From Podarcis vaucheri (lineage: Eukaryota): 64,000 nucleotides of DNA. Where the stretch lies: assembly GCA_965113315.1 (NCBI GenBank), contig OZ220366.1. The stretch is one strand, 5' to 3'. Below, piece by piece: positions 26,008 through 64,000 of the stretch. Every line of letters starts with the position of its first letter. Within the stretch, counting starts at the first letter, position 1. Made by a program: the position numbers and the translations under genes. The notes below the pieces were generated by a model that had not been told where the DNA came from, searched no databases, and saw nothing but the letters and a program-made list of their open reading frames with translations.

Positions 26008-26167
26008 CCCTCCTGTGGTGCAATGGGCCAGTTTGTCTGGCTACCAACCCGAAGGCTGGTGGTTCTAGCCCACCCAGGGATGGCTGTGGGCAAAATTCCT
26101 GAATTGCAGGGGGTTGGACTAGATGACCCTCGAGGTCCCTTCCAACTCTAGAATTCTATTATTCTAA
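26008..26167 (+). mobile_element. tRNA-derived SINE with CR1-like tail
   Basis: B-box-like ggttctagccc followed by gcagggggttggactagatgaccctcgaggtcccttccaactctagaattctattattcta. Confidence 0.7.
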
Positions 26168-54700: not shown

Positions 54701-56803
54701 TCCCAGATCCTTAAAATCCACTCTTCTAATGTTAATTCCCCTGCTTCCCAGTTTGCAAGAATTGTGATACCTGCTGCTCTCAAGAGGTTATTATCATTTC
54801 TTCAGATATGACTAGGTCTTTTGCATAGTCAAATAATACAATTGATGAATCTAATGGTAGTTTATATCCCCGGAAAGATCACTCACCCAGTGTCACACCC
54901 CAACAGCATTCTGGGACACTGAAAACCTGCGAGAAACATCTGCTTTAGAAAATCTGACGTAGGTAAGACATTAAAAAAGCCGTACCATCACCATAGAAAC
55001 AGAAACTAACAATTACACAATCCACATAATTAAGACAGCCACTTTTCAATAAGCATATTTGTTTCTTTTGGCAGAGTTACTTGTTTGGTGTTTGCTTAAG
55101 ATATAAAATTAGATTCCTTTGTGATCTCAAGACATCCATCCATCCAGAGTGTAATTAGAAGGCAAAGAGGCAACATTACCAGGTTGTTCTACCAGGTGTA
55201 CCTAAATTGCAGAAAGATCTCTCTATCTAAGATTGCTATCATTCTCCCTGGGCAAGTTCAGCTCTGCACATTTCCACCTGAATTTGCAACTTGGTAAAAA
55301 AGCCCTTATTTGCCAGCATTTTAGTATGAATTTCTCTCCATACAATGTTTTGATTTTTGCCTAATATACACATTTTTGCAAAGCAATTTTCTCTAATAAA
55401 GTGCATGTTTGCATGTCATTTCCACCAATATATGCATTTTTATGCACACTGAACCCTATGCATTTATGTACACATTAGGTGGCTGGAGAATTGCATTGCA
55501 AAATCTGGAGAAGTGCAAAATTCAAAGGATGGATATGATTTGTTTTGCATGTTGTTTCAGAAAGCTTGAATCAGGTAGATTTGCCTTTAAATGCAAACCA
55601 AATCAAATTTCTCCCCAACCCCTAACTGGAACATCTGCAACCATCAGTTTTCAGAACTTTGATGTATAAATCCCGACACACGAACTTAAATTGTAGACTA
55701 TTACTCAGGTTTTAAGTCCTACTGAGTTCAATAAGATTCTCATATGAACCACCTTTGCTTGCTCAGGTCTCCAATGAAGCTCTGTCTTCTGTGGCAGGCT
55801 CCTAATACAACTCTCTCCCCCCAGAGAAGTTGAATTTAACAAATTTTCATTTCTCAAGGAAAAATTTAGGTTGAATAACAGAATGCTGACTTTTCCTTCC
55901 TGTAACTCTGTACTATTATTTCTGTGTGGCCCTTTAGATTGCATTTCTATTCACTTTCATGTCATCATTGCTGGACTTTTAAACTGCCTCAAGGGTTGAG
56001 CACAGATCCAATGGTAAGTCATAAATTTAAACGTAAGTAACTTAAAATTTAAGCATGACACAACTCAGGGCAGGGGGTGTGCTATAAGGTTCTGCTGCAC
56101 TGAGAAGAAGGGGGGAGAGAAAAATACACGCATGGGTATTTCAGAATGGGGAAGTTTAGAAGCATTATAGCCGCTTTCCTTTGACTTCTCAATTCTACAG
56201 GCACGCGATGGAAGAAAAGGGAACTCGGTGGTTGTGAGCTGCTGTGCTCAGCTTGGCAGGCTTCCAGGCAAGACATGTTGACCCACCCACTCAAAGCCAG
56301 ATTTTCAGCCCAGCAAGTCAGACGACAGCATCCCTTTGCAGTTGTTTACTCCTATCCTCTGTGGAAATTAGAAGCAGAAGTCAGAGCCCAACCCCCCTCC
56401 AAAGCTTGTTTGGATAAAGAAAACCCAAAGACTGTGTATGCACCCTTTCCTTACTGGTTTGCAACCGAAAAAGATATGGTATGCATCCAAATGAAACCGG
56501 GTGCCTTGAACCACGGTGCATCCAATCACCAGGCCGCCATGTTTTTTAATAAAGGAAGAAAGTGGCGCCACTCAAACATTACCTTTTTGCTGTACATCAA
56601 ACATGGTTCAGGTGTACAGATAAAACAGGTGTAGGGAAGCTTTTTCAATACAAGGAGCACATCCCTTGTGGTGGGATGGTTTAGAGGCAAAAGCAGGCGG
56701 AACAAGGAATATAAATTTCACCTTTGTTCTGTAGGTTAGTTTCTAATACAGTCATACACTCTTCCTCCTGTCAAGCAAGTGACATTGTCAGAAATTAAGG
56801 ACA

Positions 56804-56856
56804 CAGTTGGTAGAGCATGAGACACTTAAGCTTAGGGTTGTGGGTTCGAGCCCCAC
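56804..56856 (+). mobile_element. 5' half (tRNA-Lys-CTT-like head) of a SINE split by the Gypsy insertion
   Basis: cagttggtagagcatgagacacttaagcttagggttgtgggttcgagccccac resembles tRNA-Lys(CTT) with A and B boxes; continues after the element. Confidence 0.8.
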
Positions 56857-57655
56857 TGTCAGAGCTGCTACCAGGTCCCAGCTCACATAGGACCACGCCA
56901 CACAGCGTCCACTTTAAAAGAGTCTTTATTGAGTTACAGGTTTCATTTCCGAACTGCAGCGTGCAGCTCTACACCTTCTGCTCTAGGTCGGCGAAGACCC
57001 GTCTGAGTCCCCGCCTCTTGCACACCAGCTTAATACCCTAGCCTTGCTCCACCTCCTTCGCCTCTCCCTACGTCTCTGGGTCCTTCTGCCCCCCTGGGCC
57101 TCCTCCCTTCTACTCTCCTCTGACGCTGACCCCCCTGATCCTTCTGCCTCCTTGCGGCGGGCTTTAGGACCTGGCTCACTCTCCGGGCTGCTTACTGCTC
57201 CAGCTTCCGCTGCATTTGAACTTGGCGCGCGCGCCCAACTCTCTACTTTCCTCTTAACCGTTGCCTCGCTCTCTGAGGAGGGCGTGACCACCCCTGACTC
57301 GTGCCCTCCCTCCTGCTGACAGCCTCCGGAACCCGATGCCTGGCTACCTTCCTCCCTGCTGCTCTCAGTCTTGAGCGTGGGTCCCGACTTCCAGCTGCTG
57401 CCGCCCTCAGTTATGAGCGTGGGTCCCGACTTCCAGCTGCTGCTCTCTGAATCTCCTCTGTTCCCTTCCTCCTGGGGTGTCCCCCCGGATCCCCCCCTTG
57501 CTCTGCTCACTGGGGCTCCCTTTTGGGAGTCCTCTGACTCACTGCTTAGGCTTGGAGATCTCGGGTCGTCATCATCACTCATTCTCCCTTCGGCTTCCTC
57601 CCCCTCGCTCTCTGTTTCCACCCTTCTCTGCGTCTCTGCTTCTGAACCCCTGACA
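56857..57655 (-). repeat. 3' LTR (799 bp)
   Basis: Preceded on the minus strand by a polypurine tract; AATAAA at 56930-56925. Confidence 0.97.
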
Positions 57656-60600
57656 TCCATCCCCCCCTCGAAGCCCCCCCTTCCCCCCTCCCCGCTGTCA
57701 GGTGTGGGTGCTGGGCGCTCCATCATCATGGGAGGGAATGCTGGATACAGGTCGCTCCCCGTGGGTGGCCGCCAACTGAAGACCTCCGAGTCTTCCCCCT
57801 CGCGGTCGTCGACGTGGACTTGTTGCTCTTCCATCTCTGTACCGCCGTGCTCGAACCCGAGGTCCTCCCCGAACACGTCCATGTCAGTCTCTGCGTCGGT
57901 CGCTCGACCTGGCATCTCCAGCCACTTCCTGCGCCATCGCTCCTCTGGTCGATCGTCCCACCAATACGAGTTGCCTGATGCCGAACCTGCCGGTGAACCT
58001 TCTGGGGAACGGGTGCTCCGTGCGGGTTCCCCTTCTGAGTCGAATCCATGGAACGTGCTGGAAGAAAGTGTGGGTGTGAACAACCAGTCGTCGAAGAAGC
58101 TCGCCGGCATGGGTTTGTGTGGGAAGAGGGCATGAAACTCGTCCTTGAGCAGGGGTTCCTCCAAAGCGTAGTCTGGTACCCAGCTATTGGCGCTGGCCCG
58201 GGTGCCCTCTCTGGCTAAGAGGTATTCGACTCCCTCTTCCCCCCATCTGGAGTCCAAAATCTCCGTGACCTCGTTGATGTGGTCCTGGTGCTTCACCTCC
58301 CGCGTCTCCGTCCGTTCCCGGAGCGGACTTGGCGCCGTCCCTGGCTCCTGGAACCTGTGAGGTGCCTTGTAGGGAGTGAGCACCGACCTGTGGAACACCG
58401 GATGCATTCTGGAACCCTCCGGCAGCGCCAGTCGGAAGGCTACCGGGTTGATCTGCGCTTCGACTTGGTACGGACCGATCTGCTTGTGCCCCAACTTCTT
58501 CTTGGCAAGCGACCTGGTCGGCACTGCGTGGGCTGCCAACCAGACCCAGTCTCCCACTTGGATCACTTCGCCAACCCGCCTGTGCTTGTCAGCTTGCACC
58601 TTGTAGGCGTGCTTAGCTAGCTCCAGCTGCCGTCTGAGTTGATCGTGGACCGCCTGCAGCTCTGACGCGAACGCGTCCGCCGTCTGTGGTTCTCCTTCCC
58701 CCACTCTCTCCAGTCCCGGGAAGGTTCTGGGATTCCTCCCATTGTTGGCAAAGAACGGCGTCACTCCTGTGGACACGTGCTTCGTGTTGTTGTAAGCGAA
58801 CTCGGCTAGCGGCAGGTAATCCACCCACGTCGCAGGCTGTTGATTGGCATAGCATCTCAGGTACTGCTGCATGATGGCATTGACCCTCTCTGCTTGCCCG
58901 TTGGTCTGCGGGTGTCTTGCTGATGCCAGATTGACCTTGACATGTAGAAAACCCATCAGCTTCTGCCAGAAAGACGAGATGAACTGGCGTCCGCGGTCGG
59001 ACAGGATAGACCGTGGCAGGCCATGCACTTTGAACACGTGATCTATGAACAGTTTGGCGGTTTGTTCCGCCGTGGCCACCTTCGCACACGGAATGAAATG
59101 TGCCATCTTGGTGAACAAGTCCACCACCACTAGCACAGCTGTCTTGCCTCTCGAGCTGGGTAAATCCGTCACAAAGTCCAGGGCCACCCTCTCCCACGGT
59201 TCAAACGGTGTTTGCAGCGGTTCTAACAGTCCCGCCGGTGGTCTGTGTACCGGCTTGGCCCTCTGGCAGGTGTCGCACCTCGCGACGTAGTCCGCGACCT
59301 CTCCTCTCAGCCTGGGCCACCAGAAGTCTCTCGCGACTAATTCCATCGTTTTCTCTGTGCCAAAGTGACCGGCCGTGGGTGCGTCGTGCAACTGTTGCAG
59401 TACCTTGGCGCGAAGGTCGTCTCCTGGTACATAGACAGCCCCTTTGCGTAGGAGCAAGCCGTCCCGCACCTGGAACTCGTCCGTGGTAGCCGTGCCTCTG
59501 AGCAGTTCCGCCATCTTGTCTTGCGCGAATGAGTCGTCCCGCAATGCACGTCGCACCGCATCCAGGTCTACTGTAGCTGAGGCACACGCCCACGCCGTCG
59601 GTGCGAAGATGTGCATGGCCGCCGCTGGCGTCACCTCTTCTAGGTATTGCGGTTTTCGGGACAGTGCATCCGCCATGATGTTGGTGTCGCCTGGGACGTA
59701 CTCTATTCGGAAATTGAAGTCAGCAAAGAACTCCGCCCAACGTATCTGCCTCTGGTTCAGGAACTGAGCCGTGCGCCAGTGCTCCAGATTCTTGTGGTCC
59801 GTGCAGACCTGCACCGTGTGCTTGGCGCCGATTAGGAAGTGCCTCCACGCCTTGAAAGCTGCATGAATGGCCAGCAACTCCCTGTCCCAGATGGTGTAGT
59901 TCTGCTCCGACTTGCTGAGCTTTCTGGAGTAGAACGCTCCCGGCCGCCACACCCCCTGCGGGTCTCGCTGCAGCAGGACGGCTCCCACGGCTCTGTCTGA
60001 CGCGTCTGTCTCTACCCTCAACGGTTTACTGGGGTCGATATGCAGCAGTTGCTTCTCCGATGCGAAGAGATGCTTGAGCGCTTGAAAGGACTGTTCCGCC
60101 TGCTCCGTCCAGATGAATTTCTTTTTTTTGGAGCTGAGCGTGTCCGTAATTGCTGCCGTCTGCATCGCGAACCCCTTGATAAACTTGCGATAGAAGTTGG
60201 CGAAGCCGACAAACCGCTGGACCTCCTTCCGGTTGCGCGGGCTTTTCCAATCCAATACCGCACGAACCTTGGTGCTGTCCATGGCTATCCCCTTGTCCGA
60301 CAACTTGTATCCCAGGAAATCCACCTCCGTCGTGTCGAACTGGCACTTCTCCAGCTTGGTGTACAGTCTATGTTGTTGCAACCTGCTGAGCACCTCCCTC
60401 ACGTCTCGGTCGTGAGCTTGCTGCGAGTCAGAGAAAATCAGGATGTCATCCAGGAAGCAGACGCATGTCTTGTAGAGGAGGCCCTCCAACACGTGATGCT
60501 TAAAAGCTTGAAAACAGTGAGAGCCATTTTGTAATCCAAAGGGCATAACTCTGTATTCGTAGGTGCCCAGCGGTGTGAACATGGCCGTCTTCCACTCATC

Positions 60601-61581
60601 GCCCTCCCGCATGCGGATGAGATTGTACGCCCCTCGCAGGTCCAACTTGGTGAACACGCGTCCCTTGCGCACCGTCGCGAGGAGGTCGTCAATCCTGGGC
60701 ATGGGGTAATCAGACGGTTTGGTCATCTGGTTCAAAAGGCGGTAGTCCACAACTAGTCTTTTTTGGGGCGTGTCTTTCTTTTTCACGAAGAAAACGGGAC
60801 TGCCCCCCACTGCCTTGGACTCTCTGATGAAGCCACGCTCCAGATTATGCTCGATGAACTGTTTGAGTTCCTGCATTTCATCTTCAGACATGGAGTATAG
60901 CCGCCCCTTCGGCAGCGTCGCCCCCGGTAGGAGGTCAATCTTGCAGTCATATGGCCGGTGAGGGGGTAGCTTGTCCGCCTCCTTCTCGCAGAAGACCTCC
61001 AAAAAGCTCGCGTATTTGTGGGGGACCGCTTGCAACGTTCCCAACTGCAGTTGTGATTCCTCCTCCTCTCCCTCCCGTCGGGGCAGGATGCAGTGTTCTG
61101 CGCAATAAGAGGAGCCGAAGATCAGTTGTCTCTGGTACCAAGCCAGTGTCGGACTGTGCCTGTCCAGCCAACTCATGCCCAACACAATGGGCGTGTCCGA
61201 CAGTTGGGTGACATTAAAACTGATGACTTCCCTGTGGTTGCCAAGGCGCATCACCATCGGTGGCGTCTGCTTCACCACCTGCCCCCCTAGCAACTCTCTG
61301 CCATCCACTGTGACGACTTGCAGGGGCAGAGTGGCAGGCAATAGCTGTATAGCGTGCTGCTCCACAAAGCTCTGCGCTATAAAGTCTGCGTTGCTTCCAG
61401 AATCCACAGAAAGCGGCACTTCGATAGTGACGCCGTCGGGTAGCTGGAGAGATGCTGTGAGCTGCACTACTGGTTTGGGTGGGAGGGGATCCGTGGGTTG
61501 CAAGATTGCTGGGGACTGCTTCACAGATGCGTCTGGCTGGGCCCCAGTGCCTCCGTCTCCAGCCAGACATCGTCGTTTCCC
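56983..61581 (-). CDS. pol: Pol (PR-RT-RNase H-integrase-chromodomain-long acidic tail), expressed as a ~1870-aa Gag-Pol by -1 frameshift
   Basis: Uninterrupted ORF 56983-61698. Protease VDSGS; RT KLDLRGAY, MPFGL, FLDD; RNase H TDASD, ELLAI, TDHKNL, ADALSR; integrase HHCC, LDF, SDRG, GQAER; GPY motif; chromodomain-like EVTEILDSRW...NSWVP. Confidence 0.95.
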   Translation of the reverse strand, partial: GKRRCLAGDGGTGAQPDASVKQSPAILQPTDPLPPKPVVQLTASLQLPDGVTIEVPLSVDSGSNADFIAQSFVEQHAIQLLPATLPLQVVTVDGRELLGGQVVKQTPPMVMRLGNHREVISFNVTQLSDTPIVLGMSWLDRHSPTLAWYQRQLIFGSSYCAEHCILPRREGEEEESQLQLGTLQAVPHKYASFLEVFCEKEADKLPPHRPYDCKIDLLPGATLPKGRLYSMSEDEMQELKQFIEHNLERGFIRESKAVGGSPVFFVKKKDTPQKRLVVDYRLLNQMTKPSDYPMPRIDDLLATVRKGRVFTKLDLRGAYNLIRMREGDEWKTAMFTPLGTYEYRVMPFGLQNGSHCFQAFKHHVLEGLLYKTCVCFLDDILIFSDSQQAHDRDVREVLSRLQQHRLYTKLEKCQFDTTEVDFLGYKLSDKGIAMDSTKVRAVLDWKSPRNRKEVQRFVGFANFYRKFIKGFAMQTAAITDTLSSKKKKFIWTEQAEQSFQALKHLFASEKQLLHIDPSKPLRVETDASDRAVGAVLLQRDPQGVWRPGAFYSRKLSKSEQNYTIWDRELLAIHAAFKAWRHFLIGAKHTVQVCTDHKNLEHWRTAQFLNQRQIRWAEFFADFNFRIEYVPGDTNIMADALSRKPQYLEEVTPAAAMHIFAPTAWACASATVDLDAVRRALRDDSFAQDKMAELLRGTATTDEFQVRDGLLLRKGAVYVPGDDLRAKVLQQLHDAPTAGHFGTEKTMELVARDFWWPRLRGEVADYVARCDTCQRAKPVHRPPAGLLEPLQTPFEPWERVALDFVTDLPSSRGKTAVLVVVDLFTKMAHFIPCAKVATAEQTAKLFIDHVFKVHGLPRSILSDRGRQFISSFWQKLMGFLHVKVNLASARHPQTNGQAERVNAIMQQYLRCYANQQPATWVDYLPLAEFAYNNTKHVSTGVTPFFANNGRNPRTFPGLERVGEGEPQTADAFASELQAVHDQLRRQLELAKHAYKVQADKHRRVGEVIQVGDWVWLAAHAVPTRSLAKKKLGHKQIGPYQVEAQINPVAFRLALPEGSRMHPVFHRSVLTPYKAPHRFQEPGTAPSPLRERTETREVKHQDHINEVTEILDSRWGEEGVEYLLAREGTRASANSWVPDYALEEPLLKDEFHALFPHKPMPASFFDDWLFTPTLSSSTFHGFDSEGEPARSTRSPEGSPAGSASGNSYWWDDRPEERWRRKWLEMPGRATDAETDMDVFGEDLGFEHGGTEMEEQQVHVDDREGEDSEVFSWRPPTGSDLYPAFPPMMMERPAPTPDSGEGGRGGFEGGMDVRGSEAETQRRVETESEGEEAEGRMSDDDDPRSPSLSSESEDSQKGAPVSRARGGSGGTPQEEGNRGDSESSSWKSGPTLITEGGSSWKSGPTLKTESSREEGSQASGSGGCQQEGGHESGVVTPSSESEATVKRKVESWARAPSSNAAEAGAVSSPESEPGPKARRKEAEGSGGSASEESRREEAQGGRRTQRRRERRRRWSKARVLSWCARGGDSDGSSPT
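57656..57691 (-). promoter_or_regulatory. Polypurine tract (...GAGGGGGGGATGGA|TGTCA)
   Basis: Purine run immediately 5' of the 3' LTR on the element strand. Confidence 0.85.
61509..61581 (-). promoter_or_regulatory. -1 programmed ribosomal frameshift signal: GGGAAAC + 6-nt spacer + H-type pseudoknot
   Basis: Slippery heptamer at 61581-61575 links the gag frame (CAG GGA AAC) to the pol frame (GGG AAA CGA). Stem 1 GTCTGGCTGG/CCAGCCAGAC (10 bp), stem 2 CTGGGG/CCCCAG (6 bp). Confidence 0.88.
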
Positions 61582-62597
61582 TGCTGTGGTTCTCCTTGCT
61601 GCGTTGCTGCAGTCACCATTGCTGAGGCTGCAGTGTGCTTGTGGAGCCTCCGGGGACACTCCTTCGCCAAATGGCCTGGATCCTCGCAGATGTAACACTT
61701 CCTGTTCCCTCTAGGAGGCTTCGCTTTCCCTGCTGCCGGTGCTAGGGCTCTGGCTGCTGACTGAGCCCTTGCACCTCCAACCTCCATCGGTTCCCCTCCC
61801 CCTCCTGGCGGAGGTGTGGATTGCGCACGCGCTGCTTCCCTCGGAACGAAAGAGAAACTTCTCGCTGCTTCGCGCCCTCCACGTCCTTCATCTCTGCACC
61901 ATGGACGTTCTTCCAGCCTCACCCCCACAGTCAGCGCCCTTTGGACCACCTCCTGCGTGCTTCGGGGCCTCTCCCCCCTTGCAATTTCATCCTTAACCGC
62001 TGAACTTAGACCCTCCCAGAAGAGGTCTCTGACAGGGGGCGAATCCCGATCCCATTCTAAAGCACTGACCAGCGCAAAAAATCGGGCGTGATACTGCCGG
62101 ACGCTCGCCCTCCCTTGTTTTAGTCCATGAATCTCCCGTCTGGCAAGATCCACATCAATAGTAGACAAAAAACACGCATCCATCGCTTTGATAAAGGCAT
62201 CTGCATTCTGAAGCGCCGGATCTTTATCCCTCCACAAATTGCGCAGCCAGGCTTTGGCATCCCCATGCAAATGGGACAATATGAACCCCACCTTCTCTTC
62301 CTCATCTCTAAAGTCTTTTGCCAGCAGTTGCAGTGCGCACATTACGTCTGCTCTAAAATTAGGGTACTGTTGCAAAGTCCCATCGAAGTGAGCCACAAGC
62401 CCTCCTGCTCTCCGTGCCAATCCCACGCCCTCCGGTCTGGGTCCCGGTTGCCCTTGCTTAACAAGCATTTCAAACCTGGCGTGTAGGTCTCTGTAGGCGG
62501 CTGTAGTCTCCTCCTCCCGTTTCTTGGAAGCCAATACCTCTGAGGACAACTGGGTCACTGCCTCTTGCAGCGCGGAGATCCTCTGTTCTTCCGTCAT
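61521..62597 (-). CDS. gag: Gag (358 aa from the first ATG): N-terminal coiled coil, capsid-like region, EPMEVG motif, CCHC zinc knuckle
   Basis: ORF 61521-62630; first ATG (MTEEQ) at 62597 with A at -3. Motifs LKQGRASVRQYHARF, FWEGLSSAVKDEI and CYICEDPGHLAKEC (CX2CX4HX4C). Confidence 0.93.
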   Translation of the reverse strand: MTEEQRISALQEAVTQLSSEVLASKKREEETTAAYRDLHARFEMLVKQGQPGPRPEGVGLARRAGGLVAHFDGTLQQYPNFRADVMCALQLLAKDFRDEEEKVGFILSHLHGDAKAWLRNLWRDKDPALQNADAFIKAMDACFLSTIDVDLARREIHGLKQGRASVRQYHARFFALVSALEWDRDSPPVRDLFWEGLSSAVKDEIARGERPRSTQEVVQRALTVGVRLEERPWCRDEGRGGREAARSFSFVPREAARAQSTPPPGGGGEPMEVGGARAQSAARALAPAAGKAKPPRGNRKCYICEDPGHLAKECPRRLHKHTAASAMVTAATQQGEPQQGNDDVWLETEALGPSQTHL

Positions 62598-62694
62598 CTT
62601 GCTAACCTTTGTGAGCTCGCTTACAGACACCCCTCTTCCTCCCCTAGCGGCTTCTGCTCCCGCTGCGAGGTTTCAGGTTTCTGAAGCTTTGATG

Positions 62695-62705
62695 AGACGG
62701 GTCTT
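62695..62705 (-). promoter_or_regulatory. Primer-binding site, self-priming type (AAGACCCGTCT)
   Basis: Lies 2 nt after the 5' LTR, lacks the TGG of a tRNA PBS, and is the perfect complement of AGACGGGTCTT at 62855-62845 inside the LTR. Confidence 0.85.
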
Positions 62706-62707
62706 AC

Positions 62708-63506
62708 TGTCAGAGCTGCTACCAGGTCCCAGCTCACATAGGACCACGCCACACAGCGTCCACTTTAAAAGAGTCTTTATTGAGTTACAGGTTTCATTTC
62801 CGAACTGCAGCGTGCAGCTCTACACCTTCTGCTCTAGGTCGGCGAAGACCCGTCTGAGTCCCCGCCTCTTGCACACCAGCTTAATACCCTAGCCTTGCTC
62901 CACCTCCTTCGCCTCTCCCTACGTCTCTGGGTCCTTCTGCCCCCCTGGGCCTCCTCCCTTCTACTCTCCTCTGACGCTGACCCCCCTGATCCTTCTGCCT
63001 CCTTGCGGCGGGCTTTAGGACCTGGCTCACTCTCCGGGCTGCTTACTGCTCCAGCTTCCGCTGCATTTGAACTTGGCGCGCGCGCCCAACTCTCTACTTT
63101 CCTCTTAACCGTTGCCTCGCTCTCTGAGGAGGGCGTGACCACCCCTGACTCGTGCCCTCCCTCCTGCTGACAGCCTCCGGAACCCGATGCCTGGCTACCT
63201 TCCTCCCTGCTGCTCTCAGTCTTGAGCGTGGGTCCCGACTTCCAGCTGCTGCCGCCCTCAGTTATGAGCGTGGGTCCCGACTTCCAGCTGCTGCTCTCTG
63301 AATCTCCTCTGTTCCCTTCCTCCTGGGGTGTCCCCCCGGATCCCCCCCTTGCTCTGCTCACTGGGGCTCCCTTTTGGGAGTCCTCTGACTCACTGCTTAG
63401 GCTTGGAGATCTCGGGTCGTCATCATCACTCATTCTCCCTTCGGCTTCCTCCCCCTCGCTCTCTGTTTCCACCCTTCTCTGCGTCTCTGCTTCTGAACCC
63501 CTGACA
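62708..63506 (-). repeat. 5' LTR (799 bp)
   Basis: Direct repeat of 56857-57655 at offset 5851; translations of overlapping ORFs are identical in both copies. Confidence 0.97.
62855..62886 (-). promoter_or_regulatory. LTR core promoter: TATTAA box (62886-62881) and predicted TSS at 62855
   Basis: TATA-like box starts 31 nt upstream of an Inr-like CTCAGA whose A begins the self-primer sequence. Confidence 0.65.
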
Positions 63507-63592
63507 CCCACGTTGGGCAAAAGTTTCCTGCAGTGCAGGGGCTGGACTGGATGACCCTCATGGTCCCTTCCAACTCTACAATTCTATGATTC
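63507..63592 (+). mobile_element. 3' half (CR1-like tail) of the split SINE
   Basis: cccacgttgggc completes the tRNA-Lys acceptor arm, then ggactggatgaccctcatggtcccttccaactctacaattctatgattc forms a CR1-type 3' end. Confidence 0.8.
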
Positions 63593-64000
63593 CAGCCAGG
63601 CAAAAGCATTCAAGGAGGGTACAAAGCAGGGCCAGTGAGGGGCAGGGATAATCCCAACAGCCAGATCGGCTTGGAGAGCCACACTTGGCCCCAGGCCTAA
63701 AGTTCCCTAGCCCTGAACCAATGGATGAGTGCAAGAAATATTACCATCTTTGCCACTTTACTTAAGCATCACTTTATACTGTAAGTGTCTCAAGGCAACC
63801 CAAACCACAAAATACTACATACAACACTAAAAAAAAAAAAAGAGATCATGCACCAATCTAAACATCCCAATCCTAGCTTTCTGTACAATCACCATGAACA
63901 GCAGACTGAAACAAAATGCAGACTGTTAAATAGGAGGAAAAAAATAATAACAACAGGCAGGTGCCTGGATGGAAATTTTCAGTCTGATGCTGAAAAGGCG

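Follow-up and report, generated by a model that had tools for sequence, protein, structure and literature searches.

The minus strand of the window (the whole 64,000-nucleotide stretch of Podarcis vaucheri contig OZ220366.1 analysed here) carries a Ty3/Gypsy LTR retrotransposon of the chromovirus type, with its 5′ LTR at 63506-62708 and its 3′ LTR at 57655-56857. Its class is plain from the TG...CA LTRs, the target duplication, gag, the protease-RT-RNase H-integrase order and the polypurine tract. The two LTRs are 799 bp long and have the same sequence, and a 5-bp target-site duplication, GTGGG, bounds the element (63507-63511, second copy 56856-56852). GT is found 3′ of both LTRs, the 5′ LTR sequence running to ...TGACA at 62708; because the target duplication fixes the ends, the LTR length is 799 bp and not 801. 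The gag gene (62597-61521) encodes 358 amino acids with a capsid and a CCHC knuckle (Pfam: Retrotrans_gag, Ty3_capsid and zf-CCHC). The sole PDB match of Gag is PEG10 (E 3e-5), and an early homologue search returned eight proteins without names and nothing else. The pol frame (61710-56983, 1575 codons from stop to stop) contains, in order, protease, RT, RNase H, integrase, SH3, a degenerate chromodomain, an acidic linker and a tail encoded by the LTR. Pfam matches cover the protease, RT, RNase H, integrase and a Tf2-like SH3; the RNase H domain, as read from the sequence, has its motifs, and the top PDB match is Ty3 Gag-Pol (E 1e-133). The nearest proteins bearing names are Podarcis wall-lizard annotations. 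Pol also reads in frame through the G-rich polypurine tract region at 57700-57656.

The window copy belongs to what is called family A here; two distant families in the same genome, B and C, share its layout but have unrelated letters. The gag and pol frames overlap, and a GGGAAAC heptamer lies near the gag end in all three families. On the minus strand of the window (61585-61531) the heptamer is followed by a complementary GTCTGGCTGG/CCAGCCAGAC pair that could form a stem. A −1 frameshift is predicted at the gag-pol junction, and the heptamer with its stem resembles what we take to be the PEG10 frameshift signal. The chromodomain (PF00385) of the window copy scores 17.6 bits against a cut-off of 25.1; since those of families B and C pass the Pfam cut-off (58.2, 36.2 and 34.9 bits), the family A domain is judged degenerate.

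Family A is young and high-copy: all 40 scored hits among 1650 candidate genome matches are 100% identical over 341 nt, and 30 fetched 5′ LTRs (window copy included) show 0-1 base differences, one with a 42-nt deletion too, while their flanks differ. Three contig runs compared with the leader showed the family to be present and diverse. The window copy is inserted in a tRNA-Lys-like SINE (63600-63507 and 56856-56770; 91% to tRNA-Lys(CTT) over 53 nt), several further copies of which lie elsewhere in the window; an ARAGORN tRNA-Gly call at 26008-26084 adjoins one of them and is probably SINE-derived. Targeting of tRNA genes was considered and rejected, with tRNA genes in 0/30 of the 5′ flanks and no second insertion at that SINE site. 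Three of the 30 young copies (L007, L008, L026) lie within telomere-type hexamer arrays, and many matches are near contig ends. Gag matches of several Gypsy families cluster on a 41-Mb contig (C41), as on a heterochromatic or sex-limited chromosome.

Predicted primer, PBS and leader fold

The primer-binding site (PBS; AAGACCCGTCT, 62705-62695) is separated from the LTR end by a 2-nt spacer, GT (62707-62706). The original prediction, whose coordinates were all found correct when rechecked against the sequence, proposed Tf1-type self-priming: a PBS that does not start with TGG and is the exact complement of 11 nt of the LTR at the predicted 5′ end of the mRNA. Both points are borne out. The PBS is of a non-tRNA type without the TGG start, and its perfect complement, the putative self-primer, makes up the predicted first 11 nt of R (62855-62845), located 31 nt after a TATTAA box that starts at 62886 (62886-62881) and probably serves as the TATA-like element. 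Downstream lie a small hairpin in R (62839-62824, pairing 62839-62836 with 62827-62824), the R arm of an R-U5 stem (62821-62814), a polyadenylation signal (AATAAA, 62781-62776, largely retained among the relatives in alignment A1), a U5 hairpin (62745-62725, pairing 62745-62741 with 62729-62725) and the U5 arm of the stem (62719-62712). The two longer segments that had been proposed to pair, TGTAGAGCTGC at 62824-62814 and GCAGCTCTGACA at 62719-62708, are both present as described.

Could such complementarity arise by chance or as an inherited accident? A perfect complement in the LTR exists for only 2/5039 internal 11-mers, the PBS itself counted. The folding energy of the leader is weakly unusual (z = −1.84, 200 shuffles), which leaves some room for this reading, as does the shared ancestry of the copies; ensemble pairing probability at primer positions 2-10 is 0.97-1.0. 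Given the modest z, the case stands on position and covariation and not on energy. An Rfam scan of 55000-64000 gave no match at E <= 1. Host tRNAs were compared through a partial set (33 ARAGORN calls covering 11 anticodons, and 30 Rfam matches), within which the longest run shared with the window primer is 5 nt, and up to 8 nt for the other primer types found among relatives. Within that partial set, the PBS is complementary to the element's own R segment and not to a tRNA 3′ end, as in the Tf1/sushi group.

Covariation gives the stronger argument. Two diverged Gag queries added subfamilies with about 58-90% Gag identity, and of 63 upstream regions taken, each of the three anchors was present in 58 (the other 5, being chimeric or truncated, were left out). 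Primer and PBS pair at 11 positions in 28 of these copies, at 10 in 29 and at 9 in one, and the TATA-like box stands 31 nt from the primer in 56/58 and 35 nt in the other two. When primers are set against the PBS of other types, mostly 7-8 pairs form (1603/2242 combinations). Alignment A1 comprises the window copy and 50 of its 57 relatives (51 rows; 7 were omitted as duplicates at the compared sites). Over a 30-pair structure, 96.7% of its cells are paired, against 90.1 ± 0.3 in shuffled alignments and 37-46% in slid controls, and 12 of the 30 pairs show double changes, a number reached in 0/500 shuffles; the copies share kinship, so that cells overcount events and the shuffle result is not a probability. 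Double changes occur at 4 of the 11 pairs of the primer:PBS duplex and at four pairs of the R-U5 stem, and in the U5 hairpin at two pairs (in 6/51 and 17/51 rows). The small R hairpin is paired in 99.5% of cells, and the window copy itself has two double changes there. Compensatory primer/PBS changes across subfamilies, one of the tests that had been suggested, are thus present. Left unaided, RNAalifold draws 36 pairs, 13 of them compensated: those of the primer:PBS duplex (positions 2-11), of the R-U5 stem, of both hairpins and of another, short R-U5 helix. A duplex between R and U5 beside the PBS, as in the Tf1/sushi group, is thereby indicated by the alignment.

The R-U5 stem as originally proposed consisted of 8 bp plus three more pairs after a 1-nt bulge, and only the first part has held up. 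Two of the three extra pairs do not covary (paired in 46/50 and 38/50 rows), and the base of the third pairs instead in the covarying hairpin inside R.

Because related sequences can beat alignment shuffles, changes were also counted as events on a gag tree, where the 7 primer types require 7 changes. The tree used 71/101 rows, namely the ones that pair perfectly at positions 2-11 and have a near-full gag; as this choice favours paired rows, the tree is a count of transitions and not a test of pairing. Three copies combine parts of different subfamilies: L221 and L227 have the primer of one and the PBS of another (L221 has it in both LTRs), and L068 is also among the mixed copies (primer/PBS or U3/R from different subfamilies). 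They may be either recombinants or intermediates of a templated correction.

The same arrangement occurs in the distant families. Family B (Gag about 34% and RT-IN about 53% identical to family A) has a different 10-bp primer:PBS pair in 27 of 30 loci, the other three being a compensated variant, a 9-bp copy and a locus without anchors. Family C has a third, 11-bp pair in 18 of the 30 loci of a Retrotrans_gag search; among the other loci of that search, 6/30 lack a pair of at least 8 bp, and the remaining 6/30 comprise one additional 11-bp type, a copy of family B, an 8-bp copy and three hits of doubtful status. Matched primer/PBS changes therefore extend across two distant families as well as across subfamilies. 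The spacer is 2 nt in 10/10 elements whose ends are set by target duplication (GT in A and B, GC in C); 20 elements had been fetched for their LTR ends, of which 5 had no LTR pair and two (L164, L168) gave unrelated pairs. A 2-nt spacer in three families suggests a cDNA end that integrase would trim. One more family, represented by L122, has another 11-bp primer/PBS pair and a GT spacer behind a putative LTR end, without an obvious TATA-like box.

Taken with the 2/5039 rate, the repeated double changes and the same spacing with unrelated letters in distant families make a chance or accidental origin of the complementarity hardly credible; the covariation in these alignments already contradicts it. 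It is also improbable, though less extremely so, that the pairing is real but has another role, such as packaging, dimerisation or translational control, and that a host small RNA or tRNA fragment does the priming. The whole leader is a covarying multi-helix fold, which is common in untranslated leaders, and the tRNA check was partial, with runs to 8 nt for other primer types. Against this, three families whose letters are unrelated have the duplex exactly at the PBS position, 2 nt past the LTR end; a host primer would need to keep step with every one of the primer types, of which family A alone has at least 7, and the PBS lacks the TGG start.

Probable self-priming and the comparison with Tf1

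The element very probably primes reverse transcription with its own LTR stretch at the predicted RNA 5′ end, in the manner of Tf1. What the copies show directly is the PBS:primer pairing, its fixed place behind the TATA-like box, the covariation, and the R-U5 stem with its two hairpins; pairing, position and covariation together support the original reading. Self-priming has been described for the Tf1/sushi group in yeast and vertebrates (PMC6317226, PMC4600332). In Tf1 the RNA's initial 11 bases anneal to the PBS, and cleavage by RNase H falls between bases 11 and 12 (PMC7175516). In the lizard element Pol II would start at 62855 (or 62854), as promoter spacing suggests, and the RNA 5′ end would fold onto the PBS with the R-U5 stem closing the loop. 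By analogy with Tf1, the RNase H of the RT would then cut after nt 11, and the new 3′ end would be extended by RT through the 2-nt spacer into U5. The cDNA end would be two bases longer than the LTR, and integrase would trim it. Plus-strand synthesis would copy the primer RNA, so that a primer change could be written into the PBS without a second mutation: after cleavage, the progeny primer sequence would derive from the 3′ R copy and the PBS could be recopied from the primer RNA. A primer change would then be seen in both LTRs at first, and templating would carry it into the PBS one round later. Such templating would account for the large number of matched changes, and also for why the partner of base 1 drifts freely. 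The mixed copy L221, with its changed primer in both LTRs and the PBS of the other type, fits templating; recombination explains it too.

Some features point away from a strict copy of the Tf1 scheme. Primer base 1 is always A; opposite it the PBS has T in 29 of the 51 rows, C in 19 and A in 3. Base 1 is thus unpaired in 22/51 rows, and positions 2-11 are kept. As base 1 need not pair, a start at 62854 is also possible, and the working duplex may be 10 bp. Tf1 RNA has been described as a "pretzel" of three duplexes, one on each PBS-adjacent side (bioRxiv 2022.12.06.519325). In family A, comparison of R nt 12-33 with the 40 nt 3′ of the PBS gave p < 0.05 in 1/50 distinct pairs (window p 0.13), for a helix that may differ from the published one, and RNAalifold, which cannot draw crossing helices, found no duplex 3′ of the PBS. 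These observations, together with the family B pairing at 10 positions only and the mixed primer/PBS copies (L221 in both LTRs, L227), could be accommodated by self-priming through another route: a 10-nt primer, a primer supplied in trans (by another RNA molecule or by a short transcript with a cap) or release by some nuclease that is not RNase H. This reading overlaps with the Tf1-type one and seems unlikely on its own account, since the covariation of the R-U5 stem favours a loop within one molecule, like that of Tf1, an RNase H domain with its motifs is present, and the mixed copies follow equally from templated correction or recombination.

The element can also be compared more widely with its fission-yeast counterparts. 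In Tf1 and Tf2 of Schizosaccharomyces pombe, Tj1 of S. japonicus and Tosmo1-3, the PBS is likewise complementary to the first 11 nt of the RNA (PMC7175516, PMC4600332, PMC5341516, bioRxiv 2022.12.06.519325). There are two differences in the proteins: the lizard Gag has a CCHC knuckle, whereas the fission-yeast elements are described as being without CCHC, and the lizard gag-pol overlap has a predicted −1 frameshift, whereas the fission-yeast elements have one ORF or an in-frame stop (bioRxiv 2022.12.06.519325). The fission-yeast elements share the R-U5 stem next to the PBS and the chromovirus-type Ty3/Gypsy domain order. Unlike the Tf1 group, the lizard element has a 2-nt spacer (to our knowledge Tf1 has none between LTR and PBS) and a Pol that runs through the LTR, and the search for a duplex 3′ of its PBS gave none. 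The CCHC Gag and the −1 frameshift at gag-pol, the latter predicted, are traits of Tf1/sushi elements outside yeast and appear here on the sequence. Vertebrate Tf1/sushi chromoviruses resemble the element in their proposed self-priming and in Gag, which here matches PEG10; mammalian PEG10 and RTL1 probably derive from the Tf1/sushi group. The element is most likely a V-clade Tf1/sushi member, an assignment made by features; for a place beside Sushi-ichi and the Amn elements, the PEG10 match is indirect support.

The mechanism is known already and its vertebrate version has already been proposed; the lizard genome gives it unusually good comparative support. In the literature consulted, self-priming experiments concern fission-yeast Tf1, and in vertebrate Tf1/sushi elements self-priming is implicated or stands as a proposal (PMC4600332, PMC6317226, bioRxiv 2022.12.06.519325). 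V-clade chromoviruses have been reported in fish, amphibians and amniotes, including a full-length Anolis element (PMC2774666), and full-length chromoviruses have been reported from reptile genomes (PMC3670739), so that the novelty the original prediction implied for an amniote example was overstated. The literature searched (main texts, with few subscription papers) held nothing specific on this lizard family or on experiments on vertebrate self-priming. The evidence added here for vertebrates is comparative: numerous matched changes of primer and PBS, and a leader whose fold covaries. As the family is young, native RNA and cDNA intermediates may be detectable, and independence from host tRNA would let the element escape silencing by 3′ tRNA fragments.

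The reading frame through U3

A separate feature of the element is a U3 that would encode protein, which was not found described for vertebrate elements in the literature searched. The pol frame crosses the polypurine tract, stays open over the full length of U3 and ends just past the primer copy of the 3′ LTR (stop codon at 56985-56983). U3 and the start of R in the 3′ LTR thus encode the last 223 residues of Pol (57655-56983; the same sequence lies at 63506-62834), in a frame that takes in U3 from end to end, with the TATA box and the primer. The composition of the tail is acidic and then Arg-rich, with conserved Trp residues. It had no match in Pfam or the ESM Atlas, which proves neither novelty nor absence.

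The frame was examined in 56 family A 5′ LTRs with both anchors, from 61 looked at. The Pol frame of U3 is without a stop in 26/56 LTRs, and the other two frames in 2 and 0. Where U3 length keeps the frame, 26/30 are open, compared with 2/2000 dinucleotide shuffles. The Pol stop codon is TAG in 32 of the 56 LTRs, TAA in 23 and TAC in 1. For the 24 distinct open U3s, pairwise dN/dS comes to 0.21-0.30, whereas the shifted frames give 1.1-2.2 and 0.67-0.91; the pairs are not independent and include at least one recombinant LTR. By these measures U3 evolves as coding sequence for the C-terminal tail of Pol. Among young copies, U3 is read through in 28/30. At 38 testable 3′ ends, mostly from older copies (53 were examined), the linker is open and in frame in 12 and read through in 5; many of the remaining older 3′ ends lose the frame at or near the G-rich polypurine tract region. 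U3 also contains a tandem duplication of 42 nt, or 14 codons (63294-63207 and 57443-57356), and one young copy that is minus one unit is still in frame.

Related arrangements can be found nearby and in plants. The Podarcis muralis protein UniRef100_A0A670KNJ5 is 75% identical over 409 aligned C-terminal residues of Pol and has the same end residue; its automatic annotation, "Gypsy retrotransposon integrase-like protein 1", is a name that is silent on priming and on an LTR-derived tail. Families B and C likewise carry, where the LTR begins, an open frame of 91-115 codons, which agrees with the Pol frame in 3/4 elements. In plant CRM and the beet chromoviruses Bingo and Beetle the ORF likewise extends into the 3′ LTR (PMC3059260, PMC3605345), and the literature searched (main texts, few subscription papers) held nothing specific on an integrase tail encoded by the LTR outside plants. 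Membership in CRM group A was considered and rejected: that group is primed by tRNA-Met and carries a CR motif in place of the chromodomain, whereas the lizard element has a non-tRNA PBS, a tail with no Pfam match and a chromodomain-like stretch upstream of the polypurine tract. CRM shares with it only an ORF that runs on into the LTR.

A joint reading of both features can be offered tentatively, and as a whole we regard it as somewhat doubtful. The element would represent a still-spreading lizard chromovirus lineage whose LTR is at once promoter, self-primer and coding sequence for an integrase tail of 220 residues, which would replace the decaying chromodomain in chromatin or nuclear targeting; an HMGN-like RRSARL motif in the tail of family B is in keeping with this. 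Its priming would depart from that of Tf1 (base 1 dispensable, two spacer bases, the region 3′ of the PBS without a duplex), and templating of primer changes into the PBS would make its copies a natural series of swap variants.

In family B, where the tail (L163:5639-6244, and L166) stands behind a full-scoring chromodomain, the tail has the sequence RRSARLKA. The acidic-patch (nucleosome-binding) motif of HMGN proteins is RRSARLSA (PMC12480509), to which the family B sequence is close.
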